This document shows, piece after piece, positions 9,594 to 32,000 of a stretch of DNA of 32,000 bases. Position 1 is the stretch's first letter, and each line of letters starts with the position of its first letter. The translations under genes and the position numbers were made by a program. The notes under the pieces are model-generated. The model was not told where the DNA came from. It ran no database searches and worked only from the letters and a program-made list of their open reading frames with translations. The DNA is taken from contig NC_017080.1 in NCBI RefSeq assembly GCF_000284115.1, forward strand, positions 1,320,001 through 1,352,000. The letters run 5' to 3'. The DNA comes from Phycisphaera mikurensis NBRC 102666 (GTDB lineage: Bacteria > Planctomycetota > Phycisphaerae > Phycisphaerales > Phycisphaeraceae).

Positions 9594-9594
9594 G

Positions 9595-9640: not shown

Positions 9641-9721
9641 CCGGTTCGGCGGCCGGGTGGACCGGCCGCGCGGCCACCGCGCCCGCGGCCGGCCTCGCGC
9701 CCAAGCTCCTGCGTGTACCCA

Positions 9722-15298: not shown

Positions 15299-15406
15299 CC
15301 CCCGCGCGGCGTGGAGCCCGCCGGCCCCGGCCCGTCGCAAGACGCAGGCCCGGGCGGGGCGGCCCGCCCGCCCGGCGGCGTCGAGGAGCCGCACGCGCTT
15401 CGCGCG

Positions 15407-16828
15407 CTACCCCAGCGGCACCCGGTCGTCCGCCGCCCGCAGCTCCCGCTGGGCGTGCTGCGGCGGCATCGGGTCCGGCGGCGCGGCGTCCCGCACCTCC
15501 GCCGCCGGCTCGCCCGCGGCGGCCATCCGCCGCAGCAGCCGCTCCTTCATCCGCTCCCGGACCGGGGCGTACGCGGCCAGGCCGGCGAGGTTGATCAGCT
15601 CGTGCGGGTCGGCGAGGAGGTCGTACAGGTGCGTCTCGGTGTAGGCCGCGGCGAAGCGGTCCCCCGGCGCCGCGTCCGGCGCCTCCGCGGCGTACTTCCA
15701 CCGCCGGGTCCGCACGGCGCGGCCCGTCACGCTCTCGCTCACCTGGATGAAGGCCTCCTCCGGCCACGCCGCCGCCGCGCCCGGCTCGCGGCGCACGAGC
15801 CCGACGGCGCTGCGCCCCTGCGCCCCCTCGGGCGGGTCCACCCCGGCGGCTCCGCAGAGGGTCGGGGCGACGTCGGTCAGCTGGAAGGGCAGCTCCACGC
15901 GCCCGCCGCCGGTGAAGGGCCCGCCGTGCGCCACGCACGGGGTCCGGACGCTCGCCTCGTGGCACGACCGCTTGTACTCGTCGTTCCGCGTGCGGAAGTG
16001 GCAGGCGTGGTCGCTCGCGAAGAGCACGACCGTGTCCTCGATCCGGCCCAGCGAGATCAGCGCGTCCATCAGCCGCCCGAAGGCCTCGTCCAGCCGCCTG
16101 CACATCCCGAAGTAGCCGGCGAGCTGCTGCTGGGCGTTGCCGCCGGTGAGGTGGCGGACCGCCGGGTGGGCCCCGGGCAGCGCCGCCAGGTCGGGCGGCG
16201 TCCACCGCCCGGCGTAGCGGCCGGCGCTGAAGGCCGGGGCCGGGTGATCGTCGCGGTGGTTCTGCATGTGCGGCTCGAGGTGGCTGAGCATGCACAGGAA
16301 GGGCTCACCCGCACCCGAACGCTCGGAGATCCAGCGGATCGTCGCGTCGGTGAGCGCGTCCACCCGGTAGCCCGGCAGGTCGACGGGGTGCCCGCCGGCG
16401 TCCCAGAGCCTCGTCTGGTACGCGTCGCTCGTCGCCTCCAGCGCGTTGGCCGCCAGCCAGTGTTGCCAGCCGCCGCGGCTTTCCTCGGGCACCGCGTCGC
16501 CGCCCCCGGCCAGGTGCCACTTGCCGAAGTAGCCCGTGGCGTAACCGGCCGCGGCGAAGCGCTTCGCCAGCGTGTCGGCTTCGGCGGGCAGCGGCCGCCC
16601 GTTGGTGTGGCAGCCCGGGCCGATGGCCGTCGCGAAGCGGCCGGTCTGCAGGCAGGCGCGGGCGGGGCCGCAGACCGGCTGCGGGGTGATGGCCTGCGCG
16701 AAGTGCGTGCCGCGGGCGCCCCAGGCGTCGAGGTTGGGCGTCAGGTCGAGCGGGCAGCCGTGCAGCCCGCTGGTGTCGTGCCGCTGCTGATCCGTGAAGA
16801 AGACGACGACGTTGAGGCGGCCGCTCAT
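15407..16828 (-). CDS. arylsulfatase-family sulfatase (no signal peptide)
   Basis: MSGRLNVVVFFTDQQRHD, formylglycine motif CGPARACLQTGR (CxPxR), GKWHL. ATG at 16828. Confidence 0.88.
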   Translation of the reverse strand: MSGRLNVVVFFTDQQRHDTSGLHGCPLDLTPNLDAWGARGTHFAQAITPQPVCGPARACLQTGRFATAIGPGCHTNGRPLPAEADTLAKRFAAAGYATGYFGKWHLAGGGDAVPEESRGGWQHWLAANALEATSDAYQTRLWDAGGHPVDLPGYRVDALTDATIRWISERSGAGEPFLCMLSHLEPHMQNHRDDHPAPAFSAGRYAGRWTPPDLAALPGAHPAVRHLTGGNAQQQLAGYFGMCRRLDEAFGRLMDALISLGRIEDTVVLFASDHACHFRTRNDEYKRSCHEASVRTPCVAHGGPFTGGGRVELPFQLTDVAPTLCGAAGVDPPEGAQGRSAVGLVRREPGAAAAWPEEAFIQVSESVTGRAVRTRRWKYAAEAPDAAPGDRFAAAYTETHLYDLLADPHELINLAGLAAYAPVRERMKERLLRRMAAAGEPAAEVRDAAPPDPMPPQHAQRELRAADDRVPLG

Positions 16829-17462: not shown

Positions 17463-17894
17463 TCAGGAAACCGCGGACCGCGGCGGCGTCGGCCCCGGAG
17501 GGACGGCGGTCCGCGGCGTCGCCGAGGCGGGCGTCACCGGCGGCGCGGCGGGCGAGCCGGGTGCGACGGCAGCGGCCGAAGCGGGCGGCGGGCCGGCGGG
17601 CGGCGGCGGAAGGGCGCTACGCACGCCCATCCAGGCCGCCCCGGCCGCCGCCGCGGCGAGCCAGAGCCCCGCCACCAGCAGCGCGAGCGGCCAGCCGATG
17701 AGACGGGCCAGCAGCCACATGAACGCCACCGTCAGCACGAGCCCCGCCAGCGAGGCGAGCGACACCGCGAGGGACCACCACGTCAGCACCCGCAGCACCC
17801 TCCCGCCCACGTGCAGCGCCACGCGTCCCTCGGCCTCCGCCAGGCCGGCGAGGTTGACGGCGAAGGCGTTGAGTCGACGGAAGAGCTGATTCAT
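17463..17894 (-). CDS. YqjE / holin-X-like (DUF1469-type) inner membrane protein
   Basis: Amphipathic N-terminus followed by two TM helices, located directly after a DUF883 gene. The C-terminal tail overlaps a REP-like hairpin. Confidence 0.45.
   Translation of the reverse strand: MNQLFRRLNAFAVNLAGLAEAEGRVALHVGGRVLRVLTWWSLAVSLASLAGLVLTVAFMWLLARLIGWPLALLVAGLWLAAAAAGAAWMGVRSALPPPPAGPPPASAAAVAPGSPAAPPVTPASATPRTAVPPGPTPPRSAVS
17471..17516. repeat. REP-like hairpin module (CCGCGGACCG - 26 nt - CGGTCCGCGG)
   Basis: Same arms as 4201 and 9595. Lies within the last ~18 codons of the 17463-17894 ORF. Confidence 0.65.
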
Positions 17895-18397: not shown

Positions 18398-21300
18398 TCA
18401 CTTCCGCCGGATCGCCAGGCTCACGATCTGGTACGCCGTGAACCCGATCGGGACCCGCGGACCGTCGACGCCCCCGGCATCGCCGAGCCGCCGTCCGCGG
18501 AGGTCGACCCGCTCGGCGGCGAAGCCATCGGCGAGCATCAGCGTGGCGGTGCCGCGGCGGCCGAGCGTCTCGTGCAGCCGGAGGGTGAAGCCGCGGGCCC
18601 CGGCCGCTCCGTCGCCGTCGCCGTCCGCCGCGGGCTTCGCCCAGGCGGGAACCAGCGATTCGCCGCCCTCGACGCCCAGCAAGCCCGCGTGCGCGGCGGA
18701 ACCCACCGCCTCCACCGCGGGCGTGAAGAGCCGGTCCGCCAGGGCGGCCGGCTGCTCCGCCCGCGGGGCGGAATCCGCGTGCGGGCCGAAGGCGAGGCGG
18801 ATCGTGTGCTCGCCGAGGTCGGTGACGGAGGGACCGGTGCCGGCGGAGTCGTTGCCGCCGCCGGAGTGGGCGGTGGACAGGGCGCTGCGGATGAGGCTGC
18901 AGTGCAGCAGGCCGTCGCGGGCGCCGAAGCCGTACTTGGCCTCGGTGACGAGCTGGAAGCCCTCGCTCTCGGTGTCGTCCGACACCGCCGCCCAGCGGGA
19001 GCCGGGAACCTCGAAGGCGGCGTCGTGCGCGAGCGGGCCGGGGCTCTGCGGCCGGAGGACGGCGCCGTAGGGCGCCCCGTAGCGGGCCCGGCCGCCGGTG
19101 AAGCCGGTCTCGGCCGACCACTTGAGCAGCGTCCGCTCGTCGCGCCAGTCCAGCCGGATCTCCAGCCGCACGACGCTCTCGCCGGGGAGCAGGCGGTACC
19201 GCAGCTCGGCGCGGCTCTTCCGCCCGAGCGCCCGGCGGAACACGAGGGTCGGCGCGTGCGTGCCCTCGCCCTCGACGCTCCGCTCGGCGGGCGTGTCGAC
19301 GACGCGGCCGTTGGAGAGCGTGGGCAGGTCGATGTCCCAGGCCTCGTACTTCGCCGGCCGGTCGGGGAAGGTGAACAGCCGGCCGGCGGGCGACCGCAGC
19401 GGCAGGGCGGTGCCCCGGGAGGCGAGGGACTCCGCCTCGCCGGAGGCGTTGAACACGACGCGGACGCGGCCGTTGTCCAGCGTCGCCGCTTCGGCCGAGA
19501 GCGAGAGCGAGGTGGCCGGGAGGTCGGCCTCACGCAGGCTCGCCGCCGCGACCGCGGCCAGCGGCGGCAGCTCCACCATGCGCCCGCCGACCTCCTCGGT
19601 CCGCGGCACCGGCAGCGGGTTGAAGACGATCGGCCGGTCGCCGCTGGCCTCCAGCGAGGCCTCCGCCGCCGCCTCCATCTCCTCCGCGAGCGAGGCCAGC
19701 TCCGGGAGCGCCTCGTCGTACACGTCCGGCACCGAGCTGCCGGGGATGTAGTCGTGGAACTGCGCGAAGACGCACCGCTTCCAGGCGTGCGTCAGCCGCC
19801 CGGCCGCCTCGCTGCCCGGCGCCGGTGCCCCGCCGGGCAGGCACGCCGCGGCCTCGCGCAGCTGCAGCGCCCGCTCCAGCGCCCGGAAGCGGGCTTTCAG
19901 CTCCGACCGCGTCGTCTGCACGCCGCGGTGGTACTCCAGGTACATCTCGCCGGCGTAGGTCGGCAGCCGGTCGCGTTTCTCGTCGAGCCGGTCGAAGAAG
20001 CCCTCGACGGTGCCCCAGCCGGTCCTGGGCATCCCCGCGAGGTCGTTCATCCGGCGGACCCGCTCGGCCATCGCGTCGTTGGGCCCGCCGCCGCCGTCGC
20101 CGTAGCCCACGGCGAGGAGGGTCTCGTCGTGAACGCCCGACTGCCGGTCCTGCAACGCCGGGTGCAGCACCTCGTCCACCGTCGCCGCCGCGTTGTAGAA
20201 GTTCCAGGAGAGGTGCGTAAGCACCTCCGAGCCGTCCATGCCGCGCCACTTGAAGCTGCTGTACGGGATCCGTGTCGCGCCCGACCAGTGCATCTTCGTG
20301 GTGTAGAAGTAGGGCACGCCGAAGCCGGCCATGATCGTCGGCAGCGCGGCGGAGTAGCCGAAGACGTCGGGCAGCCAGACGATCGGGCTGTCGCGGCCGT
20401 CGGGGCGGAGCTTCCGGAAGCCCGCCTGCCCCAGCTCGAAGGCGCGGACCAGCGCCTCGCCGCAGGGCAGCTGCGTGTCGCTCTCGACGTACATCGCGCC
20501 GAGGGGCTCGAAGCCCGGCCGCCCCTCCGGCCCGGGCTTGGCCGCTTCGATCAGCCGCCGGTGGAGCCCCGGGTCGCGCCGCTGGACGGCCTCGAGCATC
20601 GCCGGCTGGCTCTGGTTGAACACCAGCTCGGGGTAGCGGCTGCCCACGTCCAGCGCGTTCGCCAGCGAGTGCACCGCCTTGAACTCGCCGGTCCGCTCGG
20701 GCCACAGCCAGACCAGGTCGATGTGCATGTGCCCGGTGAGCAACACCGTCGAGGCCGTGGCCGCCGCCGGCAGCGACGCGAGCAGCGCGCCGGTCACCTC
20801 CCGCAGCGCCGCCGGCCCGCCGTGGTCGTACGCGTCGACCGCGGCGTCGAGGCCGACGAGGATTCTGCGCCCCAGCGGGTCGAGGTTCTCGATCGGGGCC
20901 CGCCAGCCGAAGCCGTTGGGCAGGTCGCTGCGGCCGGGGTTGTCGCGGCGGTGCAGCGCGATGGCCAAGCCCAGCAGCACCTCCACGTCGAAGCTGGCCG
21001 CCCAGGCCTCCTCGTCGCGGCTGCACAGGAAGGCGCCCTTGAACTCAGAGCCCCGCGCGTCCACGCCCTCGCCCGCGCCCGGCACCCAGATCCCCGTCCG
21101 CGCGCAGGTCGACTCGATCAGCAGCGTCCCGCCGCTCGCGATCAGGTCGTCGGGCAGCCGCAGCCGGGTGTGCCCCGGATCGATGCCCGCGACCGCCGTG
21201 CCTCGCCAGTACGCCGTCGCCTCGCCGCGGTCGCGCCAATCAAGCCACCGCGGGCCCTCGCCGGCCGGGATCTGGACCTTCCACCAGCCCTGATCGAAGC

Positions 21301-21642: not shown

Positions 21643-22888
21643 GTGCCGCGTCACGCAGCGATCCGCGGGTAGAGGCTCAGCAGCTTGATCCGGGCGTCAT
21701 CGGCGGTGAACTGCCAGTGCACGCCTCGCTGGCTCTGGTTGCGAGCGGCCGCCCAGGCTCGGGCCTCGCGATCGATCTCCTGGATGGTGTCGATCCGTCG
21801 GCCGAGGCATTGCCTTGAGAGCACACTCAGTTCGCACTCGGCGATGTTCAGCCACGAACCGTGGGCCGGCGTGTGCACCAGCTCGATCCGCTCAGCGATC
21901 CGCCGCGCCTCTGCTGCCTCGAATGCTTCGTACAACGACGCGATCCTGTGGGTGTTCAGGTTGTCGCACACCAGGCGGATCCGTGTCGCTGACTCATAAC
22001 GCGGGGCGTCCACCAACGCCTGGATCTGGTGGGCCCAGTCCGCCGCGGTGCGTCGCCGACTGGTCCGAACGTCCCGCCACCCAGCCAACGGCTCGGTGAA
22101 CATCCACAGGTTGCAGGTGCCGTGCCGCACGTACTCGTGGTCCTCGATCCGACGGCCGGTGGAGTCGGTGAAGCGGCGGCGGGTCTCGCCGATGAGCTGC
22201 TTGGGCTGCTCGTCCATGCACACCACCGGCAACGCCGGGTCGTAGGCGAGCGCGTACAGGCACAGCACCGCCTCCATGGCCGCGACGAAGGCCGCGGACT
22301 GCTCCGGCGGGATGCACCACATCTTCTTCTTCCACGGCTTCAGACCGTTTTTTGAAGAGCGCACCGCACCGCTTCGCGGCTGATCGAGTCCACCACCTTC
22401 AGCTCCACCAGCCGGCCGGCCAGGAGGCGGAGGCTCCAGCGATCATGGCCCTCGGGCGGGTCCGAGCAGGCGATCGTCACCAGCTGGGCTTCGCCTACGC
22501 CGTCGAGCTTGCGTTGCATCGCGCGGTCTTGAGGCTTGCGTTCGAGCAACGAGAGCGGACCGTCCTCGACAGCCTTCTTCCGCCAGCCCTCCACAGTGCG
22601 GACACCCGCGTCGAAAGCCTCGGCGATCTGCTCGTCGGTCCAGGCCGGAGCGCCGGGCGATTCGTCGCACTTGAGCAGGGCTTGCGCCCGCTGGATCTTC
22701 CAGCCGGCGACGCGGCCGCTGCGGACCAGCGTGGTCAGCTGCTCCCGCTCATCGTCGGTGAGGTGGACGTGGTAGAGCTTTCGATTCTTGAGCTTCGTGG
22801 CCATCCTTGGCCTCCTTTGCATTCGGTGGTGAACACGTGCACGGTGACGCTACACGCCTCACCCGCAGATCGGCGGCAGCCGCGGCAC
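21643..22888 (-). mobile_element. IS630-family insertion sequence (~1246 bp) flanked by a TA duplication
   Basis: Terminal inverted repeats GTGCCGCG...GATCCGCGGGT (21643-) and ACCCGCAGATC...CGCGGCAC (-22888). TA at 21641-21642 and 22889-22890. Encodes a DDE transposase. Confidence 0.85.
21651..22804 (-). CDS. IS630-family transposase, two frames joined by a -1 frameshift on an A6 run
   Basis: orfA (HTH, MATKLKNRKLYHVHLTDDEREQL, SD AAGGAGG upstream of ATG 22804) ends ...ALQKTV*. orfB continues NGLKPWKKKMWCIPP...DDE. The A6 slippery run is at 22348-22353. Confidence 0.85.
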
Positions 22889-24297
22889 TAGACGTGCGCG
22901 AGCTTGTTGAGCCCGTTGTAGGCGGCGACCTTGTACGCCTCGGCGAGGGTCGGGAAGTTGAACACGTTGTTGATGAAGAACTCCGCCGTGCCGTCCAGGC
23001 CCATGACGCACTGGCCGATGTGCACCAGCTCGGTCGCCCCGGTCCCCATGCAGTGCACGCCGAGGATCTTGTGGCTGTCCTGGTGGATCAGCATCTTGAG
23101 CATGCCCGTGCGGTCGCCGAGGATCTGGCCCCGGGCGATCTCCTCGTAGCGCGCGACGCCGGCCTCGTAGGGCACGCCCTCCTGGGTCAGCTGCTCCTCG
23201 GTCTTGCCGACCATCGAGATCTCCGGCACCGCGTAGATGCCGTAGGGAAACAGGTCGGTGTTGTAGTTCCCGACGTCCTGGCCGAAGGCGTGGGCGATCG
23301 CCCGGCGGCCCTGCTCCATGGAGGTGCTGGCCAGCGCCGGGAAGCCGATCACGTCGCCGGCGGCGTACACGTGGTCGACGTTGGTCTGGTAGTGCTCGTC
23401 GACCTTCAGCCGCTCGCGGTCGTCGAAGGTGATGCCCACGTTGTCCAGCCCCATCGCCCCGCACACGCCCTGGCGGCCGACGGCGTAGAGCAGCGTCTCG
23501 GCCTTGAGCTTCTTGCCGCTCTCCAGCGTCGCCTGGACGAGCGTGGACACCGTGCCGTTGCGGTGCTCCACCTTCTCGATGCGCTCGACCTTCTCGCCCA
23601 TCCGCAGCGTCACGCCCTGCTGCCGCATGAAGTACATGAAGGCGCCGGAGATCTCGCTGTCGAGAAAGCCCAGCAGCTGGTGTCGGCCCTCCACGAGCGT
23701 GACCTTCACCCCCAGCGTCGCCATGATCGACGCGTACTCGGTCCCGATCACGCCGCCGCCGACGACGATCATCGACTTGGGGAGGCGCTCGAGCTTCAGC
23801 AGGCCGTCGCTGGTGAAGATCGCGTCGTTGTCGAATGGGATGTCGGCGGGCTTGGCCGGCCGCGTGCCGCAGGAGACCAGGAAGCGGTCGGCGGTGACCA
23901 GCTGCGAGTCGCCGTCGCCCTGGATCATCAGCAGGTTGGGCCCCTCGAAGTGGGCCGTGCCCCAGATCAGATCGACGCCGTTCCGCTCGAACTGGCCGCG
24001 GATGACCTCCCACTCGTGGCGGATGACGTTCGAGGAGATCTCGATGAGATCGTGGATCGTGATCTTCTGCTTCGCCCGCGACGCCCCGCTGTAGTTGCCC
24101 CGCTGCGCGGCGCCGGTGAGGTGGAGCGCCGCCTCCCGCAGGCTCTTGCTGGGGATCGTCCCCGTGTTGATCTGGGCCCCGCCGAGCACGTTCTGCTTCT
24201 CGACGATGGCAACCGACTTGCCGAGCTTGGCCGCCTGGATGGCGCCCTTCTGCCCGGCGGGGCCGGTTCCGATGATGACGACGTCGTAGTGCTTCAT
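22888..24297 (-). CDS. sthA: soluble pyridine nucleotide transhydrogenase (Si-specific NAD(P)+ transhydrogenase)
   Basis: MKHYDVVIIGTGPAGQKGA..., GGAQINTGTIPSK (disulfide cysteines replaced as in SthA/UdhA), second GGGVIGTEYA, C-terminal dimerisation domain. SD GGAG before ATG 24297. Confidence 0.88.
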   Translation of the reverse strand: MKHYDVVIIGTGPAGQKGAIQAAKLGKSVAIVEKQNVLGGAQINTGTIPSKSLREAALHLTGAAQRGNYSGASRAKQKITIHDLIEISSNVIRHEWEVIRGQFERNGVDLIWGTAHFEGPNLLMIQGDGDSQLVTADRFLVSCGTRPAKPADIPFDNDAIFTSDGLLKLERLPKSMIVVGGGVIGTEYASIMATLGVKVTLVEGRHQLLGFLDSEISGAFMYFMRQQGVTLRMGEKVERIEKVEHRNGTVSTLVQATLESGKKLKAETLLYAVGRQGVCGAMGLDNVGITFDDRERLKVDEHYQTNVDHVYAAGDVIGFPALASTSMEQGRRAIAHAFGQDVGNYNTDLFPYGIYAVPEISMVGKTEEQLTQEGVPYEAGVARYEEIARGQILGDRTGMLKMLIHQDSHKILGVHCMGTGATELVHIGQCVMGLDGTAEFFINNVFNFPTLAEAYKVAAYNGLNKLAHV

Positions 24298-24484
24298 GGA
24301 GCTCCGCCTTCGGCGGGGTGAGGTTCGCGTGGTGGTTCGTCTCCGCCGGGGGGAACCCCCGGCTGCGCTCGCGGCGAGAACGCTCTGTCGAGGCGTGGCC
24401 CCGAGACATCAGGTGCGGCGAAACAGACGGCCGTGCACGGAGGCATCGGCGATTCGGCGTTCGCTGCGTGACGCGGCGGGCTCC

Positions 24485-24806
24485 GCCCGCACGCGTCCGC
24501 CGAGGTTATGCGTCGTTCCGCCGCGGACCGTGTGCCAAGGAACCCGCCACCCCTCCCGGTCCGCGGAGCGGACGCGAGAGCCGGGTCGCCCGCGATCCAG
24601 GCGCCGGGCCCGCAGAGCCGCCCGTGGCTCACCGCCCTCGGCGGTGTGGCCCGTCGGGCGCAGCCCGAGCGTCGGCCCGGGAGAGGGCGTCCCGACGCGT
24701 GGTTCGTGCAGCCCTCCCGGCTGTGACGAGGGAGCGCCCCGCCGCCCGGGTGCGCCGGCCGGAACCCTCGCACCCACCCGCGCAGCGTCGCGTCGCAACG
24801 CAGCGA
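24485..24806. repeat. structured GC-rich repeat, copy A (approximate boundaries)
   Basis: Shares with copies B and C the hairpin module 24521-24566, the GGGTCGC..GCGATCC stem, gtgcagccctcccg at 24706, the cccgggtgcgcc...cccacccg hairpin and the terminal palindrome gcgtcgcgtcgcaacgc. Confidence 0.7.
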
Positions 24807-24965
24807 ATACGCGTCCTCGAAAAGATTGACGCACTCAATGTCCCGGTCCTGGGTGCCACGCCCCTTGGGGGGTGGCGGGTGCCATCGGCCTGATCTGCGC
24901 TCGACCACCCCGCAAGCGGCGTGGCACCCGGCTCAGGAAGCGTCAGTCTTTTCGACGAAGCGTAT
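24807..24965. repeat. 159-bp imperfect palindrome (long hairpin flanked by A-run/T-run)
   Basis: Left arm atacgcgtcctcgaaaagattgacgcactc...gggtgccacgccccttggggggtgg mirrors right arm ccaccccgcaagcggcgtggcaccc...gcgtcagtcttttcgacgaagcgtat. Confidence 0.7.
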
Positions 24966-25305
24966 GAGTCGTCGGTCCCAGCACGCGTCATCGGCGCCCG
25001 TCTCGGGAGATCCGCGGACCGCGCGGCAAAACGCCGCCAACCCCTCCCCGTCCGCGGAGCCGGCGCTTCAGCCGGGTCGCCACGCGACCCGGGCAGGGCC
25101 GGGCTGCCACGCAGCACGGAACGGCCGCGCAGCGGACGGTGAGTCGGTCGCACGGCTTCCGGGATCCGAAGAGCGTCCCGAAGCATGGCTTGTGCAGCCC
25201 TCCCGCCCGTCGCGAGGCAGCGCCCCGTCGCCCGGGTGCGCCGTCCGGAACCCTCGCGCCCACCCGGGCAGCGTTGCGTTGCAACGCAGCTAATCCGTTG
25301 TCGGT
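24966..25305. repeat. structured GC-rich repeat, copy B (approximate boundaries)
   Basis: Hairpin module 25012-25057, stem CCGGGTCGC-CAC-GCGACCCGG, gtgcagccctcccg at 25192, palindrome gcgttgcgttgcaacgc. Confidence 0.7.
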
Positions 25306-25675
25306 TTCAACGAGCGTCATTGGGGTCCGTGTCCGAAGATCCGCGGACCGTGCGCGAAACCGCCGCCAACCGCGGACGGTCCGCCGAGCGGACGCGAAAG
25401 CCGGATCGCGTGCGATCCGGGCCTCGGCGCAGCCGACCGCCGGCGCAGCCGGCGCCACGGGCTCGCAGAGCCGCCCGTGGCTCAACGCCTTCGGCGATGT
25501 AGCCCGTCGGGCGCAGCCCGAGCGTCGGCCGGGAAGAGAGCGTCCCGAAGCGGGATTTGTGCAGCCCTCCCGCCCGTTAAGAGCGAGCGCCCCGGCGCCC
25601 GGGTTAGCCGTCCGGAACCCTCGCGCCCACCCGGCCCGCGTTGCGTCGCAACGCGGCTGTTTCGACTCGCGTTCC
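25306..25675. repeat. structured GC-rich repeat, copy C (approximate boundaries)
   Basis: Hairpin module 25341-25386 (one mismatch), stem CCGGATCGC-GT-GCGATCCGG, gtgcagccctcccg at 25559, palindrome cgcgttgcgtcgcaacgcgg. Confidence 0.7.
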
Positions 25676-25700
25676 AATCGGCGTGGCCGTTGCCCACCGA

Positions 25701-25769
25701 CGCCCGCTCCGTGCGGAAGCTGTAGTGCCCCCGCCGCAGCACCTCGTGAACCTCCGTCATCGACCCCAT
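25701..25769 (-). pseudogene. intI: integron integrase gene remnant (first ~23 codons only)
   Basis: MGSMTEVHEVLRRGHYSFRTERA matches the IntI N-terminus (IntI1 ...LRERIRYLHYSLRTEQAY...). It is divergent from and 172 bp away from the first GTTAGGC. No recombinase motifs follow in any frame. Confidence 0.6.
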
Positions 25770-25863
25770 GGGCTGAAGCTAGCTTCTGCCTTGCGTGCTG
25801 CCAATACGGCACGATATGCAGAATGTGTCGGGTCGCAACCCGCTCCAAGAGCCCCGCAGCCGC

Positions 25864-25892
25864 TTGACACCCGCCGCGACCCGGATCAAACT
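25864..25892 (+). promoter_or_regulatory. candidate cassette promoter (TTGACA - 17 nt - CAAACT)
   Basis: Perfect -35 hexamer at 25864-25869 pointing into the array. The -10 is weak, and the promoter rules of this lineage are unknown to me. Confidence 0.25.
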
Positions 25893-25910
25893 CACCCACG
25901 ACCGATCGAC

Positions 25911-25947
25911 GTTCTGCCGACAGCATTCTGTCGAATCACTGTTAGGC
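25911..25947 (+). other. attI-like primary recombination site ending in GTTAGGC
   Basis: First GTTRRRY core (25941-25947) is not preceded by an attC. Imperfect direct repeats GTTCTGCCGA / ATTCTGTCGA and inverted CGACAG/CTGTCG lie immediately upstream. Confidence 0.5.
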
Positions 25948-26174
25948 GGCGGTGAACGCGGTCCGCTCTTCCCCGTGTGTCCGCCGTCGCGCCCGTCCGC
26001 GGACCGTCGGGTGTTTCAGCCGTTCGTCCCCACGGTCCGCGGCGCGGTCGTGCGCTGCGGGCCGGCCGCACCTCGTCGGCCGAGCGTCGTCGCCGCTGGT
26101 TTCGCTGCGGCCGGCGTCGCGGCCCCGGCTCGTCGGCCATTCGGTCGGCGGCCCTCGCCGCTCTGCGCGTCGCC
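25948..26174 (+). repeat. cassette K1: 227-bp ORF-less paralogue (copy 1 of 6)
   Basis: Starts GGCGGTGAA, has hairpin CCGCGGACCGT(25997)-24 nt-ACGGTCCGCGG(26042), and a conserved 3' 130 nt ending GCGCGTCGCC. Confidence 0.85.
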
Positions 26175-26283
26175 GCCTAACCAGGCGTTGCAGCGGACCG
26201 GCAGGGTGTGGGGGTTTACAGTCCGCTCCGGGAACCAAGCCCGCCGTCAGTTCGGCCGGCCGCTGAACGCTTCTTCGTTAGGC
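26175..26283 (+). repeat. attC1
   Basis: GCCTAAC...GTTAGGC, 109 bp, imperfect palindrome. Identical to attC5. Confidence 0.85.
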
Positions 26284-26510
26284 GGCGGTAAAAGCGGTCC
26301 GTTCGTCCCCGTGTGTCCGCCGTCGCGCACGTCCGCGGACCGTCGGCGTTTTCGGCCGCTCGTCCCCACGGTCCGCGGCGCGGTCGTCCGCTGCGGGCCG
26401 GCCGTACCTCGTCCGCCGGGCGTCGTCGCCGCTCGTTCCGCTGCGGTCGGCGTCGCGGCCCGGGCTCGCCGGCCATTCGGTCGGCGGCCCTCGCCGCTCT
26501 GCGCGTCGCC
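26284..26510 (+). repeat. cassette K2: 227-bp ORF-less paralogue (copy 2)
   Basis: Same length and architecture as K1. Confidence 0.85.
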
Positions 26511-26619
26511 GCCTAACAAGGCGTTGCAGCGGACCGGCAGTGTTCCCGGGTTTACAGTGCTCCCCCGGTTCCAGCTGCGTCGTCGCTCTGGCCGGCCGCT
26601 GAACACTTCTTCGTTAGGC
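26511..26619 (+). repeat. attC2
   Basis: GCCTAAC...GTTAGGC, 109 bp. Differs from attC6 at 3 positions. Confidence 0.85.
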
Positions 26620-26853
26620 AGCACCCCAAGCGGGCTTGTGCTGCTGCGCACACGTGCCGTCTTGCCAACCCGCGGACCGTCGCGTGTTTCGGCCTTTGGG
26701 CCCCACGGTCCGCGGCGCCTTTACCCGCTGCGGGTCCGCCGTGTTCGGCTCCTTTGGCATCGCCGCAGGTCCAGCGCTGCGGTCGTTGTCGCGGCTCAAG
26801 CGCTGCTCCGCTCCCGGTCAGGGCGCCGCCGTCTTCCACGTCCCCCGCGTGCG
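26620..26853 (+). repeat. cassette K3: ORF-less, divergent relative of the 227-bp family and paralogue of K15
   Basis: Carries hairpin CCGCGGACCGT(26670)...ACGGTCCGCGG(26715). The first ~110 nt align with 31701-31810. Confidence 0.75.
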
Positions 26854-26962
26854 GCCTAACCAGGCGTTGCAGCGGACCGGCAGTGCTCGCGGGTTTACAC
26901 TGCTCTCCCGGTTCCAGCTGCGTCGTCGCTCTGGCCGGCCGCTGAACACTTCTTCGTTAGGC
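26854..26962 (+). repeat. attC3
   Basis: GCCTAAC...GTTAGGC, 109 bp. Confidence 0.85.
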
Positions 26963-26969
26963 CGCATCT

Positions 26970-27395
26970 TTGAGCGCTTCCGAGACATTCCGCCTCAAGC
27001 AGCTGGAGGAGCTCCAGGAGCTCATCCCGTCTCTGATCGACAGGCTCAACGAGATCGCCCGCGTCGATCCAACCAGATCCGGCCCAGGTGATCCCGCAGT
27101 CAACCCGTCACTGCTTGCATCTTGTCGGGCGGCAATCCCCTTGCTGCAACGTGCAACCGAGCAGTGCCACACTTTGGGTCCATCGAGCGACACGGCTCAC
27201 CACACAAGGAAGAAGAAGCCGAAACGTACCGCTGCACAGATTGCCGCAAAAAAGAAGAAGATCCGCATGACGGGGATACCGAAGGGTGGAAAGAAGCGTA
27301 AAAAGTCAAAGCTACCGCAAGGCGGACCAGCTCGCAGCGTGCGAACTGTCGGGAGCGGGCAAACGTTGAAGCCGGGAAGCCACCGCTCCACGTAA
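26970..27395 (+). CDS. cassette K4: orphan 141-aa protein with N-terminal coiled coil and lysine-rich basic C-terminal half
   Basis: ORF fills the cassette, with TTG start 8 nt after the attC3 core and stop 4 nt before R'' of attC4. Visibly AT-richer than the host. Contains KKKPKRTAAQIAAKKKKIR...GGKKRKKSK. Confidence 0.6.
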   Translation: MSASETFRLKQLEELQELIPSLIDRLNEIARVDPTRSGPGDPAVNPSLLASCRAAIPLLQRATEQCHTLGPSSDTAHHTRKKKPKRTAAQIAAKKKKIRMTGIPKGGKKRKKSKLPQGGPARSVRTVGSGQTLKPGSHRST

Positions 27396-27399
27396 TGCG

Positions 27400-27509
27400 G
27401 CCTAACCAGGCGTTGCAGCGGACCGGCAGTGTGTGGGGGTTCACAGTGCATTCCCCGGTTCCAGCTGCGGCGTCGCTCTCGCCGGCCGCTGAACACTTCT
27501 TCGTTAGGC
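27400..27509 (+). repeat. attC4
   Basis: GCCTAAC...GTTAGGC, 110 bp. Confidence 0.85.
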
Positions 27510-27736
27510 GGCGGTGACACCGGTTCGTCCTTCCCTGTGTGTCTGCCGTCGCGCATGTCCGCGGACCGTCGGGGGTTTCGGCCGCTTGCCCCCGCGGTCC
27601 GCGGCGCGGTCGTCCGCTGCGGGCTGGCCGCACCTCGTCGGCCGGGCGTCGTCGCCGCTCGTTTCGCTGCGGTCGGCGTCGCGGCCCCGGCTCGCCGGCC
27701 ATCCGGTCGGCGGCCCTCGCCGCTCTGCGCGTCGCC
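27510..27736 (+). repeat. cassette K5: 227-bp ORF-less paralogue (copy 3)
   Basis: 23 substitutions and no indels versus K1 by hand alignment. Confidence 0.85.
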
Positions 27737-27845
27737 GCCTAACCAGGCGTTGCAGCGGACCGGCAGGGTGTGGGGGTTTACAGTCCGCTCCGGGAACCAA
27801 GCCCGCCGTCAGTTCGGCCGGCCGCTGAACGCTTCTTCGTTAGGC
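27737..27845 (+). repeat. attC5
   Basis: GCCTAAC...GTTAGGC, 109 bp. Identical to attC1. Confidence 0.85.
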
Positions 27846-28072
27846 GGCGGTGAAAGCTGTCCGTCCATCCCCGTGTGTCCGCCGTCGCGCACGTCCGCGG
27901 ACCGTCGGCGGTTCCAGCGGCACGTGCCCACGGTCCGCGGCGCGGTCGTCCGCCGCGGGCCGGCCGTACCTCGTCGGCCGGGCGTCGTCGCCGCCCGTTT
28001 CGCTGCGGTCGGCGTCGCGGCCCCGGCTCGTCGGCCATCCGGTCGGCGGCCCTCGCCGCTCTGCGCGTCGCC
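27846..28072 (+). repeat. cassette K6: 227-bp ORF-less paralogue (copy 4)
   Basis: 17 substitutions and no indels versus K2 by hand alignment. Confidence 0.85.
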
Positions 28073-28181
28073 GCCTAACAAGGCGTTGCAGCGGACCGGC
28101 AGTGTTCCCGGGTTTACAGTGCTCCCCCGGCTCCAGCTGCGTCGTCGCTCTGGCCGGCCGCTGAACTCCTCTTCGTTAGGC
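28073..28181 (+). repeat. attC6
   Basis: GCCTAAC...GTTAGGC, 109 bp. Confidence 0.85.
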
Positions 28182-28186
28182 GTACC

Positions 28187-28540
28187 TTGGCGAAACCGAC
28201 TTCCGAAGCGGCTTGGCTCGGAGCGTTCGCCGCGATCGTCTGGACGTTCCCCATCGTTGCTCTATTTGCGCTTCTGTATCGGTTCCCGATTCCTTTCGCC
28301 GGGTACATGACCGGACCGGCAGCGGTTCCCCCGGCCATGCTGGCTGTCTTGTTCTACGGTGCGCTCGGGGGCGTCTTCGTTCAGCTCCTCGCGGGCTTGG
28401 GTGCCGGTGTGGCCGCTTGGTGGTGGGCCCGTCCCAATCGCAGCCGTAGCAACCGCTACGCAGTGGCGTTGGCCGCTCTTGCAGCCGTCCCGGGTGTGCT
28501 GCTCCTGGCAGTCCTCGACCACCTCATCGGCCCGTGGTGA
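28187..28540 (+). CDS. cassette K7: small multi-TM membrane protein (117 aa)
   Basis: ORF fills the cassette, with candidate TTG start 6 nt after the attC6 core and stop 4 nt before R'' of attC7. Three to four hydrophobic helices. Start is uncertain. Confidence 0.5.
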   Translation: MAKPTSEAAWLGAFAAIVWTFPIVALFALLYRFPIPFAGYMTGPAAVPPAMLAVLFYGALGGVFVQLLAGLGAGVAAWWWARPNRSRSNRYAVALAALAAVPGVLLLAVLDHLIGPW

Positions 28541-28544
28541 GCAC

Positions 28545-28653
28545 GCCTAACCAGGCGTTGCAGCGGGCCGGCAGTGTGTGGGGGTTTATGCTGCTCTCCC
28601 GATTCCAGCCGCGTCGTCACTCTGGCCGGCCGCTGAACGCTTCTTCGTTACGC
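28545..28653 (+). repeat. attC7 (variant core GTTACGC)
   Basis: GCCTAAC...GTTACGC, 109 bp. Confidence 0.8.
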
Positions 28654-28665
28654 GGCTTGAGCACT

Positions 28666-28992
28666 ATGTTGGTACTGCTCATGCTGGCCACTCAAGCGTT
28701 GCTGATCGGCGTCGCGGTGGGTGTGCGGACTTCTCGGACCGAGCGTTCTGCCAAGGATTCTGCTGCGCTCGCTTGGGGGTGGGCGCTGGCTGTCCTCACT
28801 CTGACCCTGTTCATCTTCGCAGTCGTGTACGAGGCTGTATCACCTCGACCGCTCGGGCACCCGGTCCTGGTCGCGCTCTCGTTCACGCTCTTGTGGTGGT
28901 TCATTCCCCCAATTCTTCCTGCCGTCGCGGGGCTTGCGGCAGCGAGCTGTTGGATTCTGCGTCGTGCTCGCCCGCAAGGTCCGGCCGCCTAA
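28666..28992 (+). CDS. cassette K8: small multi-TM membrane protein (~108 aa)
   Basis: ATG 28666 (or TTG 28657). Product MLVLLMLATQALLIGVAVGV.... The stop TAA is the TAA of GCCTAAC in attC8. Confidence 0.5.
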   Translation: MLVLLMLATQALLIGVAVGVRTSRTERSAKDSAALAWGWALAVLTLTLFIFAVVYEAVSPRPLGHPVLVALSFTLLWWFIPPILPAVAGLAAASCWILRRARPQGPAA

Positions 28993-29094
28993 CCAGGCGT
29001 TGCAGCGGGCCGGCAGTGTGTGCGGGTTTACACTGCTTTCCCAGTTCCAGCCCGCCGTCGCTCTGGCCGGCCGCTGAACGCTTCTTCGTTAGGC
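28987..29094 (+). repeat. attC8
   Basis: GCCTAAC...GTTAGGC, 108 bp. Confidence 0.85.
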
Positions 29095-29321
29095 GGCGGT
29101 GAACGCGGTCCGTTCGCCCCCGTGTGTCAGCCGTCACGCACGTCCGCGGACCGTCGGCGTGTTCGGCCGCTCGTCCCCACGGTCCGCGGCGCGGTCGTCC
29201 GCTGCGGGCCGGCCGTACCTCGTCCGCCGGGCGTCGTCGCCGCTCGTTCCGCTGCGGTCGGCGTCGCGGCCCCGGCTCGTCGGCCATCCGGTCGGCGGCC
29301 CTCGCCGCTCTGCGCGTCGCC
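29095..29321 (+). repeat. cassette K9: 227-bp ORF-less paralogue (copy 5)
   Basis: Same length and architecture. Closest to K2. Confidence 0.85.
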
Positions 29322-29430
29322 GCCTAACAAGGTGTTGCAGCGGACCGGCAGGGTGTGCGGGTTTACAGTGCTCTTCCTGTTCCAGGCCCGCCGTCAGTTC
29401 GGCCGGCCGCTGAACACTTCTTCGTTAGGC
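29322..29430 (+). repeat. attC9
   Basis: GCCTAAC...GTTAGGC, 109 bp. Confidence 0.85.
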
Positions 29431-29657
29431 GGCGGTGAAAGCGGTCCGTTCTTCCCCGTGGGTCCGCCGTCGCGCATGTCCGCGGACCGTCGGCGAGTTC
29501 GGCCACTCCTCCCCACGGTCCGCGGCGCGGTCGTCCGCTGCGGGCCGGCCGTGTCTCGTCGGCCGGGCGTCGTCGCCGCTCGTTTCGCTGCGGTCGGCGT
29601 CGCGGCCCCGGCTCGCCGGCCATCCGGTCGGCGGCCCTCGCCGCTCTTCGCGTCGCC
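29431..29657 (+). repeat. cassette K10: 227-bp ORF-less paralogue (copy 6)
   Basis: Same length and architecture. Confidence 0.85.
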
Positions 29658-29766
29658 GCCTAACCAGGCGTTGCAGCGGACCGGCAGCGTGTGCGGCTTT
29701 ACAGTGCTCTCCCGGTTCCAGCTGCGTCGTCGCTCTGGCCGGCCGCTGAACGCTTCTTCGTTAGGC
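29658..29766 (+). repeat. attC10
   Basis: GCCTAAC...GTTAGGC, 109 bp. Confidence 0.85.
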
Positions 29767-29803
29767 CGCGGCAGCATTGCTGTGTCTCCCAGGAACTGCA
29801 ACA

Positions 29804-30166
29804 ATGAGTCGGCGTAGCAGAGCCAAATTGGTGACGAAGAGCTCGGACATCGGCAGCCGGATCCTCAACTCTGCTCAGCTGAACGCTAGTTCTGCTGTCC
29901 CACGTTTCCTAGCTGGCCGCGAAGCACTAGAGTCCGCTCCTGCTCCAGCGGCCAAAAAGAAGAAAAAGCGTATCAAGCTGAAGCCGTTCGCCTGCGACGT
30001 TTGCGGCGAAGTTTTCAGCCTTAAAGCTATGGATAGGCACAGGAGGCGTGTCCATTTCATACCAACGCCACAACAGTCTGCTATGGTGAAATGCCCGCAC
30101 TGCCGGAAAGCCGTGAGGCAGTGCAATCTGCGAAAGCACATGGAAAAAATGCATCCTCAATCTTGA
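29804..30166 (+). CDS. cassette K11: 120-aa protein with poly-lysine tract and two tandem C2H2-type zinc fingers
   Basis: MSRRSRAKL...AAKKKKKRIKLKP, then FACDVCGEVFSLKAMDRHRRRVH and VKCPHCRKAVRQCNLRKHMEKMH (both C-X2-C-X11-H-X4-H). AT-richer than the host. Confidence 0.65.
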   Translation: MSRRSRAKLVTKSSDIGSRILNSAQLNASSAVPRFLAGREALESAPAPAAKKKKKRIKLKPFACDVCGEVFSLKAMDRHRRRVHFIPTPQQSAMVKCPHCRKAVRQCNLRKHMEKMHPQS

Positions 30167-30187
30167 AGGCCAGCTCGCCGGCGTGCG

Positions 30188-30297
30188 GCCTAACTCGGCG
30201 TTGCAGCGGACCGGCAGTGTGTGCGGGTTTACAGTGCTCCCCCCGGGTCCAGCTGCGTCGTCGCTCTGGCCGGCCGCTGAACGCTTCTTCGTTAGGC
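30188..30297 (+). repeat. attC11
   Basis: GCCTAAC...GTTAGGC, 110 bp. Confidence 0.85.
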
Positions 30298-30461
30298 CGC
30301 ACCAAACCGGGCGGTTGGGCTCCGCTCCTCCGCACGCTGGCGGGCGTCGCCGCCGGCCGCTGCTCGGCGTGCTCGCCGCTCGGTTCGCTGCGTCGGCCGC
30401 CGCGGCTCCAGCTCGCCGGTGCTCTCGTGCAGCCGGGCCCGTGGCACATCCGCCGCGTGCG
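30298..30461 (+). repeat. cassette K12: short (164 bp) ORF-less cassette related to the 3' half of the 227-bp family
   Basis: gggcgtcgccgcc...gctcggttcgctgcgtcggcc resembles gggcgtcgtcgccgctcgtttcgctgcggtcggc. Lacks the hairpin module. Confidence 0.6.
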
Positions 30462-30570
30462 GCCTAACCAGGCAATGCAGCGGACCGGGGGTGTGCGCGG
30501 GTTTACGGTGCTCGCCCGGATCCGGGCCGCCGTTGTGGTTGCCCGGCCGCTGATTGCTTCTTCGTTAGGC
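30462..30570 (+). repeat. attC12
   Basis: GCCTAAC...GTTAGGC, 109 bp. More divergent inner arms (ggcaatgcagcgg / ccgctgattgc). Confidence 0.8.
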
Positions 30571-30648
30571 CGCACCAGTGGAGTGGAAATGCACTGCGCT
30601 ATGCCGCAATCACCAAGTGCCGTCTCTTCTTCTCTGGTGCGTTTCACA

Positions 30649-31212
30649 TCAGCTGCGTGGAGCGATCCTCGACTCTGCTACACCGGAGAAGAGTGATTCC
30701 AGTCCCTTCTGCACGCGTTGAGCGAGGTCCGGCGTTGCGGCAATATCACCTGCTGAGAGATTCGCGGGGAACGCCGGGAGCTGGACCGATCGATCGCCAA
30801 GTAGTACAACCCCCATCGTGCGGAGTACCTCGCGAAGTGCCGCGTCCGCGTGATGCGCGCCGGCGCGAGCGTTGATGACCAACACGGGCTTATCGGTCGC
30901 GGCGGGCACGCTCACGAGCCACTCCAGCGTGTTCTTTATATGGGCGCTGATCCCGTGTGCGTACTCCGGGCTTGCGAGCAGCAGGCCGTCGCATGCTGCG
31001 ACCCACTCTCGGCAAGATGTAACGGTGCGCGGCGGGTCCGCCTCCAGGTCGGGATTGAAGAGCGGCAGCCGGGCCGGTAGGTCGGAGGTCTCCAGCTCGG
31101 CGTACTCCGGGAAGAGAGTTCGCGTCGCTTTGAGAACGCGCGCATGAACAGAATTGGCACGCAGGCTGCCGCACAGACCGGCAATTCGGACTTCCGGGCG
31201 AGTACGTGGCAC
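30649..31212 (-). CDS. cassette K13: NAD(P)H-dependent FMN reductase family protein, inverted relative to the array
   Basis: VRIAGLCGSLRANS... and LLLASPEYAHGISAHIKNTLEWL (FMN_red SPEYN..xxxLKNxxDW-type motif). GTG start with GAGG 6 nt upstream. Confidence 0.75.
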   Translation of the reverse strand: MPRTRPEVRIAGLCGSLRANSVHARVLKATRTLFPEYAELETSDLPARLPLFNPDLEADPPRTVTSCREWVAACDGLLLASPEYAHGISAHIKNTLEWLVSVPAATDKPVLVINARAGAHHADAALREVLRTMGVVLLGDRSVQLPAFPANLSAGDIAATPDLAQRVQKGLESLFSGVAESRIAPRS

Positions 31213-31373
31213 AGGACGCCTCGACTGTACCGCCGCGAGGGACGTCTCTTCTATCAGGTCCGCGGGGCCGTTAGGGACGCTCCTGCCATGTGAAAGCCGC
31301 GGACCGTCACATCCTCAAGCGTTCCGGCGCTCCAGTGCGCGGCGCGGTCGTTTCTCGCGGGCCCCCGCGTGCG

Positions 31374-31482
31374 GCCTAACCAGGCGTTGCAGCGAACCGG
31401 CAGTGCTCGCAGGTTTACACTGCTCCTCCGGTTCTAGCTGCGTCGTCGCTCTGGCCGGCCGCTGAACGCTTCTTCGTTGGGC
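31374..31482 (+). repeat. attC13 (core GTTGGGC)
   Basis: GCCTAAC...GTTGGGC, 109 bp. Confidence 0.85.
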
Positions 31483-31537
31483 GGCCATTTCTCCAACTCG
31501 TTCCACAATCCGCCTGATCTCCTCCATCATCGCGACC

Positions 31538-31684
31538 GTGGCCTGCCTCGCGTTGCTGGCTTCGCTCTTGGTGCTCCTGCTTGCCCCACATCCGCTCATG
31601 GCACTGCCTGTCGTCATCTTCGGCGTCGGTGGGCTCGGTGCTGCGGCGGTGGCGTACTCCGCCAGTCGCGCTCCCGCCGCCTAA
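31538..31684 (+). CDS. cassette K14: possible 48-aa two-TM peptide
   Basis: GTG 31538. Product VACLALLASLLVLLLAPHPLMALPVVIFGVGGLGAAAVAY.... The stop is the TAA of GCCTAAC. Below the ORF-track size cut-off and the start is speculative. Confidence 0.3.
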   Translation: MACLALLASLLVLLLAPHPLMALPVVIFGVGGLGAAAVAYSASRAPAA

Positions 31685-31700
31685 CGCTTCTCCGTTGGGC
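31679..31700 (+). repeat. collapsed attC (R'' + 8 nt + R' only)
   Basis: GCCTAAC-gcttctcc-GTTGGGC. The whole L-box/variable region of the ~109-bp site is missing. Confidence 0.6.
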
Positions 31701-31873
31701 CGCACCCAAAGCGGGCTTGTGCTGCTGCGCACATCCGCCGTCTCGCCAAGCCGCGGACCGTCGCGGGTTTCGGCGTCCCGGCCCCACGGTCCGCGGCGCG
31801 GCGGCCTCGTGCGGTGCAGCTCCGCCGCTCATCCGGTCGCCCTCCCCGCCGCCTTCCACGCTCGCCGCGTGTG
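31701..31873 (+). repeat. cassette K15: shortened paralogue of K3, last recognisable cassette
   Basis: Starts CGCACCCAAAGCGGGCTTGTGCTGCTGCGCACA as K3 does. Hairpin 31751-31796. Ends gcgtgtg followed by the decayed GTCCTAC. Confidence 0.65.
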
Positions 31874-31880
31874 GTCCTAC
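31874..31880 (+). repeat. decayed inverse core (GTCCTAC) marking the end of the array
   Basis: Sits where GCCTAAC is expected after ...ccgcgtgtg. The downstream sequence no longer resembles an attC. Confidence 0.4.
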
Positions 31881-32000
31881 CGGTCGTCGGCCGTGCCCGC
31901 GGCGACCTGCAACACCGCCGCCGCCTGCGGCTGGGTCCTCCCCACGTCTTCGACCGCCGTGGGCCCCCGCGACCGCGAAACCATGGATCCGCCGTCCGTG

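Follow-up and report, generated by a model that had tools for sequence, protein, structure and literature searches.

The window analysed here is a 32,000-nt stretch of the chromosome of Phycisphaera mikurensis NBRC 102666 (NC_017080.1, positions 1,320,001 to 1,352,000), and positions given without a locus name refer to it. An integron region at 25700-31880 is flanked on one side by sth (22888-24297, minus strand) and on the other by a short-chain dehydrogenase (SDR) gene (32148-33071, minus strand). It comprises a stub of an integron integrase gene (intI), an attI region and 15 cassettes (K1-K15; Table 1) bounded by attC sites. A second locus of the same genome, L031, carries a related array, whose cassettes are designated C. 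No integrase open reading frame (ORF) was found within the window (1-32000) or in the following 9.2 kb, and the 9.2 kb past the array end, with their SDR and sulfatase genes, contain no attC motif. As an independent draft assembly of the same species (GCA_014207395.1) has an identical structure at this locus, with 2 mismatches in 9.3 kb, the array is not an assembly artefact. Our literature search found no description of this P. mikurensis array; integrons of Planctomycetes have already been recorded (PMC4889954).

The attC sites of the array

A repeat search together with a motif scan recovered 13 imperfect palindromes of 108-110 nt between 26175 and 31482, in line with an initial annotation made from the sequence alone, which had reported 13 copies of a palindrome of about 109 bp. 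Every copy opens with the R'' motif GCCTAAC (13/13), and the R' motif that closes it is GTTAGGC in 11 of the 13, GTTACGC in one (28647) and GTTGGGC in one (31476), the same ends that had been read before. On both strands of the window GCCTAAC was observed 26 times, compared with 1.07 times expected from shuffles, and all occurrences fall within 25941-31685. The 14th GCCTAAC, at 31679, runs straight into GCTTCTCCGTTGGGC and marks a collapsed attC (31679-31700), which has lost the hairpin that would separate the AAC of R'' from that of L'. Loss of a hairpin between two AAC triplets fits the slippage expected across a stable hairpin. The last unit closes with a degenerate R'', GGTCCTAC (31873-31880). 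Counting the 13 full sites together with the collapsed one and the lost one, the array therefore consists of 15 units; the 15 cassettes of the initial annotation stand, but its 15 canonical attC sites reduce to 13 full ones.

Folding pairs the ends of each site in a 7-bp R box, next to which a spacer stays unpaired (as folded, 3 nt on one arm versus 6 nt on the other). The L stem comes after it, with two bases bulged out of the plus-strand 5' arm, and is closed by the loop, which reproduces the layout first proposed. On the bottom strand, counted from the GTTAGGC end, position 16 is a bulged C and position 23 a bulged T, and a stem of 6 bp (CCGCTG/CAGCGG) lies between the two. attC sites have an extrahelical base at position 16 (usually G) and a conserved T at position 23 or 24, and a 6-bp stem between the first and last extrahelical base is required (Nivina et al., PMC5027507). 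The geometry of the P. mikurensis sites is therefore canonical; the earlier use of that word holds for the geometry and for T23, and not for the first extrahelical base (see below). In a set of 34 attC sites drawn from the window, from L031 and from metagenomes, 94.8% of cells pair (98.3% in the R box), compared with 18-46% when the partner is slid, and compensatory changes occur in five pairs, for example GCGTT/AACGC to GCAAT/ATTGC.

Using seven class-1 attC sites from plasmid records (aadA1, aadA2, aadA16, aadB, aac(6')-Ib, blaVIM-2 and aac(6')-29a), we built a covariance model and searched 52 kb with filters off. This approximation of an attC covariance check recovered all 13 window sites at full length and on the plus strand only (15.2-32.6 bits; E 4.6e-6 to 0.23, the E-values being rough), with 11 of the 13 below E 0.01. 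The attC sites of the sister array at L031 were also picked up, and nothing else in the 52 kb matched below E 0.7. As held-out true class-1 attC sites (dfrA27, arr-3, dfrA14 and dfrA5) score 18.4-23.0 bits, the Phycisphaera sites score as well as true attC sites of unrelated families.

The palindrome could in principle be an ordinary repetitive extragenic palindromic (REP) element or miniature inverted-repeat transposable element (MITE), clustered here by chance and unrelated to integrons. It is GC-rich and imperfect, as such repeats are, and the genome does have a separate dispersed palindromic repeat. However, all 26 cores lie in 25941-31685, and neither the remaining 26 kb of the window nor the following 9.2 kb has any; every copy is located downstream of an integron integrase gene or its stub; the units move as cassettes; and the class-1 model detects the copies on one strand only. 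Dispersal was judged from about 60 kb of the P. mikurensis genome, in which no copy lies outside the two arrays, so that the solitary, scattered copies that would point to a REP or MITE were not seen, and breakpoints fall at G|TTRRRY. We regard this explanation as hardly tenable. A 20-nt attC pattern run against a genome collection gave 27 single chance matches in unrelated high-GC genomes and none in P. mikurensis itself, a result that is uninformative on dispersal in P. mikurensis.

An intI stub, attI and a complete integron in the same chromosome

The first GTTAGGC, at 25941, has no attC upstream of it and lies 172 nt from the ATG of the stub (25769, minus strand), as had been noted. The stub DNA matches the 5' end of the intact intI at L031 at 61 of 70 nt (87%), which supports the proposal that this ORF, recognised by an integrase signature, is an intI remnant. 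The N-termini of the L031 integrase (MGLMEEVHEALRRGHYSFRTEQAY) and of the stub (MGSMTEVHEVLRRGHYSFRTERAS) are near-identical over their first 24 residues. A tblastn search of 41 kb with IntI1 gave this N-terminal piece of the stub as its best match (E 0.16), and Pfam assigned no family to the 95-aa stub ORF. A second look-alike in that search (24750-24875, E 0.35) was rejected, as it belongs to repeat unit A of the upstream flank and not to intI.

Homology extends from the stub through the adjoining spacer, with 25700-25941 aligning to L031 7315-7556 at a platform identity of 79.5%. Within it, the attI spacer matches the L031 intI-attI spacer at 130 of 168 nt (77%), and the block 25902-25941, GACGTTCTGCCGACAGCATTCTGTCGAATCACTG, is near-invariant, with 38 of 40 nt identical to the L031 attI beside the crossover. 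Two metagenomic intI genes likewise have the end of this block, ...AATCA(A)CTGTTAGGC, next to them. Placed at the start of the array, with its crossover in GTTRRRY, this segment is a predicted attI. No sigma-70-like promoter was found in the attI region (25770-25941).

At L031, an intact intI (6221-7384) encodes a protein of 387 aa that scores 338.8 bits against TIGR02249 (cut-off 265), so that the complete integrase gene for which the initial annotation could only suggest a search does exist in this genome. The protein matches VchIntIA (PDB 2A3V) with an E of 3e-63, integron-specific segment included. About 12 attC sites of the same family lie divergent from L031 intI, and this array also ends in a truncated attC. 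Compared with VchIntIA (2A3V), the L031 integrase contains about 33-45 extra residues, inserted immediately past the integron-specific segment (residues ~241-274). The L031 array also contains a palindromic MITE-like element of about 125 nt (13264-13388) with doubled terminal repeats, GGCAAAAGGTGA, which replaces the 5' arm of an attC; it recalls insertion elements that target attC and is present as a single copy in the sequence examined.

Alignment of the stub with L031 breaks off at 25700, and the next homologous sequence is that which follows the intI stop codon in L031; the gene was therefore lost by an internal deletion of about 1.05-1.09 kb. This deletion removed intI from about codon 24 to about its stop and left the ATG, 23 codons, attI and the cassettes in place. 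A short repeat, GGAGCGGGC, lies near both ends of the deletion and may have mediated it. The three tandem non-coding units between sth and the stub are homologous to the short spacer that follows the intact intI stop at L031, and each carries one copy of the hairpin described below; 25596-25674 matches L031 6143-6222 at 78.8%, and 25492-25554 also matches L031 6038-6101. We considered these triple repeats as inverted or degenerate cassettes and rejected the idea, as the similarity is only 60-64%, which is expected from high GC.

In the nearest relatives by sth (contigs L041-L043, 91% nucleotide identity), sodA, an Xre-RES toxin-antitoxin pair and sth stand in a row (7489-11515), and no attC core motif was found in 20 kb from each of these three contigs. 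As the nearest sth loci lack attC, the array is lineage-specific. The L031 array ends at sodA (14672-15409) and the window array starts at sth, genes that are neighbours in the relatives, which suggests that both loci arose by rearrangement around one site. On this basis the window array might be the distal half of one integron split by a chromosomal rearrangement, which is a route to integrase-less clusters listed in the IntegronFinder paper (PMC4889954). However, a split array would have neither an attI nor an intI 5' end, and the window has both, 79.5% paralogous to those of L031. The genome therefore gained its second platform by duplication or by a second acquisition, and the in-place deletion of intI came afterwards. 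No simple inversion was found that fits the gene orientations to one ancestral integron between sodA and sth, and we consider the split of a single integron quite improbable.

Cassettes shared by the two arrays

K7 and C7 are 98.5% identical, with one difference, a synonymous one, in a 354-nt ORF, and K11 and C1 are 97.7% identical, with 2 differences in a 363-nt ORF. C1 is the cassette that adjoins attI in the intact integron. The homology of K11 and C1 begins exactly at G|TTAGGC, to the left of which the window has the attC of K10 and L031 has unrelated attI sequence. K11 is thus flanked by K10 and K12 in the window and by attI and C2 in L031, and its identity with C1 starts and stops at the core sites. 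The left junction offers no substrate for homologous recombination, and it is the junction that attI x attC integration predicts. This junction is the strongest evidence that these units behave as integron cassettes. The homology of K7 and C7 stops at R', so that K11 and the right end of K7/C7 show discrete units with differing neighbourhoods and borders at G|TTRRRY. In addition, K6-K7 is collinear with C6-C7, and K2-K3 with C3-C4. As near-identical cassettes occur in both arrays on platforms that are only 79.5% identical, and as C1 is attI-proximal, the comparison indicates that the arrays exchanged cassettes after the platforms diverged and that this traffic was recent.

An alternative is that the window array is a pure fossil, a segmental duplicate that lost intI, saw no integrase action since, and shares cassettes with L031 through RecA-type gene conversion. 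The K6-K7/C6-C7 and K2-K3/C3-C4 blocks are flanked by attC sites of 85-95% identity, which are possible homology arms, the distal attC sites are decaying, and both arrays end in a truncated attC. Homologous exchange would nevertheless have lacked a substrate at K11/C1, where homology starts at the G|TT of the L031 attI and there is no similarity leftward. The platform has diverged by 20% and the shared ORFs by less than 1%, and the gene for an integrase that could act in trans is intact, with the conserved segments of its family present. A fossil with no integrase action is therefore an unlikely account of the array.

We conclude, with a probability of about 0.92, that the array is a chromosomal integron of P. 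mikurensis that lost its own integrase and whose platform is a diverged paralogue of the complete integron in the same chromosome. As no integrase is encoded here, any movement would depend on trans catalysis by the sister integron's IntI, which serves attC sites of the same family. In single-stranded form, the attC bottom strand would fold into a hairpin with a 7-bp R box, a central spacer, an L box, extrahelical C16 and T23, and a long variable loop, and an integron integrase would recombine such hairpins at G|TT. Recombination of attC with attC would excise a cassette as a circle, and recombination of attI with attC would insert one beside attI.

Several points weigh against this conclusion or against current activity of the array. 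Present-day excision or insertion by the trans-acting integrase, the direction of transfer and cassette expression are things we infer from sequence, and a promoter scan of 24200-32000 found no promoter-like site. The identity of K7 and C7 could also come from homologous recombination between flanking attC repeats. The first extrahelical base of the attC sites is C and not the usual G, as is also the case in the blaVIM-2 attC. The class-1 covariance model is a small surrogate, of seven sequences, for IntegronFinder. The material consists of one strain in two assemblies. Lastly, the attC sites decay towards the distal end, where two are weak (E 0.027 and 0.23), one has collapsed and the last is lost; together with the probable fusion of K13 (see below), this suggests erosion without frequent turnover.

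The same attC family occurs at eight metagenomic loci, with 86-93% identity that includes the loop, and two of the loci have integrase genes. Metagenomic integrons with these sites include L034 310-1856, L035 10861-13925 and L036 58-947. Their integrases are about 44% identical to that of P. mikurensis, and the attC sites and cassettes are far more conserved. K2 is 88.4% identical over its full length to the metagenomic cassettes L036 58-392 and L034 650-316, and a K2-like metagenomic cassette stands first after attI beside an integrase of about 44% identity.

Contents of the cassettes

Table 1. Features of the integron region and its upstream flank, with attC scores from the class-1 covariance model and identities to the L031 array.
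Feature	Position	Strand	attC	Score (bits; E)	Identity to L031	Content
Tandem non-coding units (three)	24298-25699 (~24521-24811, 24985-25297, 25314-25684)	.				Between sth and the intI stub; repeat families D6, D9, D12; four-way alignment
intI stub	25700-25769	-				ATG and ~23 codons, MGSMTEVHEVLRRGHYSFRTERA; 5' end homologous to L031 intI
attI and promoter region	25770-25941	+				Crossover G at 25941 (G|TTAGGC); homologous to the L031 intI-attI spacer
attC starts	26175, 26511, 26854, 27400, 27737, 28073, 28545, 28987, 29322, 29658, 30188, 30462, 31374	+				Repeat search and motif scan
K1	25942-26277	+	26175-26283	28.9; 4.7e-5	92% (C6)	336 bp, no ORF, no coding signal in any frame; hairpin 25997-26042; family D1
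K2	26278-26613	+	26511-26619	30.4; 1.8e-5		336 bp, no ORF; hairpin 26333-26378
K3	26614-26956	+	26854-26962	28.7; 5.3e-5	85.5% (C4)	343 bp, no ORF; variant hairpin cassette
K4	26957-27503	+	27400-27509	26.6; 2e-4		141-aa ORF 26970-27395, TTG start, lysine-rich C-terminus
K5	27504-27839	+	27737-27845	28.9		336 bp, no ORF; K1 paralogue (93% identity)
K6	27840-28175	+	28073-28181	32.6; 4.6e-6 (best match)		336 bp, no ORF; K2 paralogue
K7	28176-28647	+	28545-28653	18.6; 0.027	98.5% (C7)	117-aa membrane-like ORF 28187-28540; R' GTTACGC
K8	28648-29088	+	28987-29094	26.6; 1.9e-4		108-aa membrane-like ORF 28666-28992
K9	29089-29424	+	29322-29430	25.5; 3.8e-4	94% (C3/C6)	336 bp, no ORF
K10	29425-29760	+	29658-29766	28.2; 7e-5		336 bp, no ORF
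K11	29761-30291	+	30188-30297	26.0	97.7% (C1)	ORF 29804-30166, 120-aa protein
K12	30292-30564	+	30462-30570	23.3; 0.0014	83.6% (C8)	273 bp, no ORF; related to the hairpin cassettes but truncated; L-stem compensatory changes (GCAAT/ATTGC)
K13	30565-31476	+	31374-31482	15.2; 0.23		912 bp; NADPH-dependent FMN reductase gene 30649-31212 (minus strand); R' GTTGGGC
K14	31477-31694	+	31679-31700 (collapsed)	10.1; 5.2		Possible ORF for a small membrane protein with two helices, terminated by the TAA of GCCTAAC (31682-31684)
K15	31695-31880	+				Terminal remnant of a K3-type hairpin cassette (86% identity to the start of K3; family D11); array end

Small ORFs that run in the direction of the array are found in K4, K7, K8 and K11 and perhaps in K14, the set proposed by the initial annotation, which had their stops 0-21 nt before R'' or inside it. 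The stop lies 4 nt before R'' in K4 and K7 and 21 nt before it in K11, and K8 and the candidate in K14 stop on the TAA of GCCTAAC. Pfam gave no family above threshold for the K4 ORF and none for the K8 ORF. The K11 protein has two C2H2 zinc fingers, with PF13894 at 30.9 bits and PF00096 at 26.9 bits, both above the cut-off. These fingers are of eukaryote type and accompanied by a lysine-rich tract, and the G+C content at third codon positions (GC3) is 0.59 where core genes reach 0.98. Across the cassette ORFs GC3 is 0.59-0.78 (0.67 in K4), compared with 0.98 for sth, which points to a foreign origin.

K13, for which the earlier cassette list did not mention the reverse-oriented gene, encodes a 187-aa reductase of family PF03358 (88.2 bits). 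Towards the 3' end of K13 are the remains of a hairpin cassette, with GTTAGGG at 31271 and a degenerate hairpin at 31297 (family D8), and K13 is for this reason probably two fused cassettes. In public annotation the ORFs of K4 and K8 are missing from the protein set, and the K7 protein has two accessions within one assembly.

Nine of the 15 cassettes have no ORF: K1, K2, K5, K6, K9 and K10, all of 336 bp, and the variants K3, K12 and K15. At least four such hairpin cassettes occur in the sister array. A coding reading was rejected, as variable sites are distributed 12/17/18 over codon positions and the frames with a synonymous excess carry stops. RNAalifold found no net covariation in these cassettes (the term was positive, that is, unfavourable) and supported only an invariant hairpin. 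This 46-nt hairpin, CCGCGGACCG-N-CGGTCCGCGG, is their only invariant payload. The pattern CCGCGGACC-N28-GGTCCGCGG matches the window 15 times where 0 matches were expected, and its stems are invariant while its loops vary freely. Seven copies lie outside the array (4201-4246, 9595-9640, 17471-17516, 18455-18500, 24521-24566, 25012-25057 and 25341-25386), another lies at L031 19046, and a related organism has intergenic copies at L041 6245, 8651 and 9888. As copies outside the array are intergenic and directly follow stop codons at 9595 and at 36550, the latter in the extension past the window, the hairpin is a host-wide palindrome of REP or terminator type.

A unit of two ORF-less cassettes, of types a and b by their attC loops, occurs three times (K1-K2, K5-K6 and K9-K10; 25942-29760), and each pair precedes one to several other cassettes, which gives the array a block structure. 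That the 336-bp cassettes are a non-coding family spreading in its own right, and not junk, is a tentative and rather doubtful proposal. They may be selfish minimal cassettes that are to integrons as MITEs are to transposons, they may act as terminators or insulators that silence the array or divide it into parts, or they may be a sign that cassettes are assembled from host intergenic DNA. If cassettes do arise from host intergenic DNA, this would bear on the unsolved question of cassette origin.

Rfam had no match in the whole window at gathering thresholds and, at E up to 1 in 24200-27000, only a chance match to a small nucleolar RNA, and terminator-like sites in 24200-32000 were at chance level. 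Upstream of sth, an imperfect palindrome of about 80 nt (24851-24929) lies between repeat units A and B. Public annotation places a 312-aa protein without domains on the minus strand at 24988-25926, across the intI stub and the tandem repeats; this protein is an artefact of high G+C.

Comparison with known integrons

With 13 attC sites on one strand and no intI nearby, the array fits the definition of a cluster of attC sites lacking an integrase (CALIN), which requires at least two such sites. Of a complete integron it lacks solely intI, of which 23 codons are left beside the array. Its 13-14 attC sites fall short of the definition of a sedentary chromosomal integron, which asks for over 19 attC sites or for occurrence in every genome (100%) of a species (PMC4889954). 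The array is thus a CALIN in which a remnant of intI can still be recognised, and it is similar to small sedentary chromosomal integrons. Elements of this kind are well understood, and this one belongs to a bacterial group that has received little study. It offers a clean natural case of how an integrase-less attC cluster can originate, by in-place deletion of intI that leaves attI and an N-terminal stub. It also suggests that an orphan array can stay connected to a complete integron, as cassettes are 98% identical where platforms have diverged by 20%, and such sharing supports the view of integrase-less arrays as live cassette reservoirs. In addition, it extends known integron anatomy to the Phycisphaerae, a marine planctomycete lineage, at 75% G+C, and brings an abundant family of non-coding cassettes to attention.

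CALINs in general combine two or more attC sites on the same strand with the absence of a functional intI from the surrounding 4 kb, and the function of most of their cassettes is unknown; a complete integron can occur in the same replicon, and intI loss is among their proposed origins (PMC4889954). The P. mikurensis array shares these traits and differs in that its origin is visible, as attI and the first 23 intI codons remain. A profile of the C-terminal part, used in that study to search for intI pseudogenes, located them close to only 15 of 279 CALINs (PMC4889954), and a stub that is N-terminal only, as here, would be missed by such a search. Cassette sharing with a complete integron was only proposed there, whereas the P. 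mikurensis arrays provide sequence evidence of it.

The superintegron of Vibrio cholerae, with its V. cholerae repeats (VCR), is likewise chromosomal, has homogeneous attC sites of about 109 nt with a large variable loop, contains cassettes of unknown function, paralogous cassettes and some reverse-oriented genes, and has a homologous integrase (VchIntIA). Unlike the superintegron, which has more than 100 attC sites, the P. mikurensis array has 13-14, its cis integrase is deleted, 9 of its 15 cassettes are non-coding, and it resides in a planctomycete (class Phycisphaerae) whose G+C content is about 75%.

Class 1 attC sites such as those of aadA1 and blaVIM-2 share the order R'' (7), spacer (5), GTT, extrahelical base, 6 bp, extrahelical A (top strand), and, on the other arm, 6 bp, AAC, spacer and GTTRRRY. 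The L'' arm of the blaVIM-2 attC (L044 4337-4408), GTTGCAGCCGAC, is nearly identical to that of P. mikurensis, GTTGCAGCGGAC. The P. mikurensis sites differ in their loop (about 50 nt versus 3-60) and 3' spacer (8 nt versus 5-6), and they are near-identical to each other, whereas class 1 attC sites are very diverse. Chromosomal integrons with an inactivated intI, for example those of Xanthomonas, are fixed arrays in which the integrase has decayed and the attC sites persist. Unlike these, the P. mikurensis array has an intact paralogous integrase available in trans.

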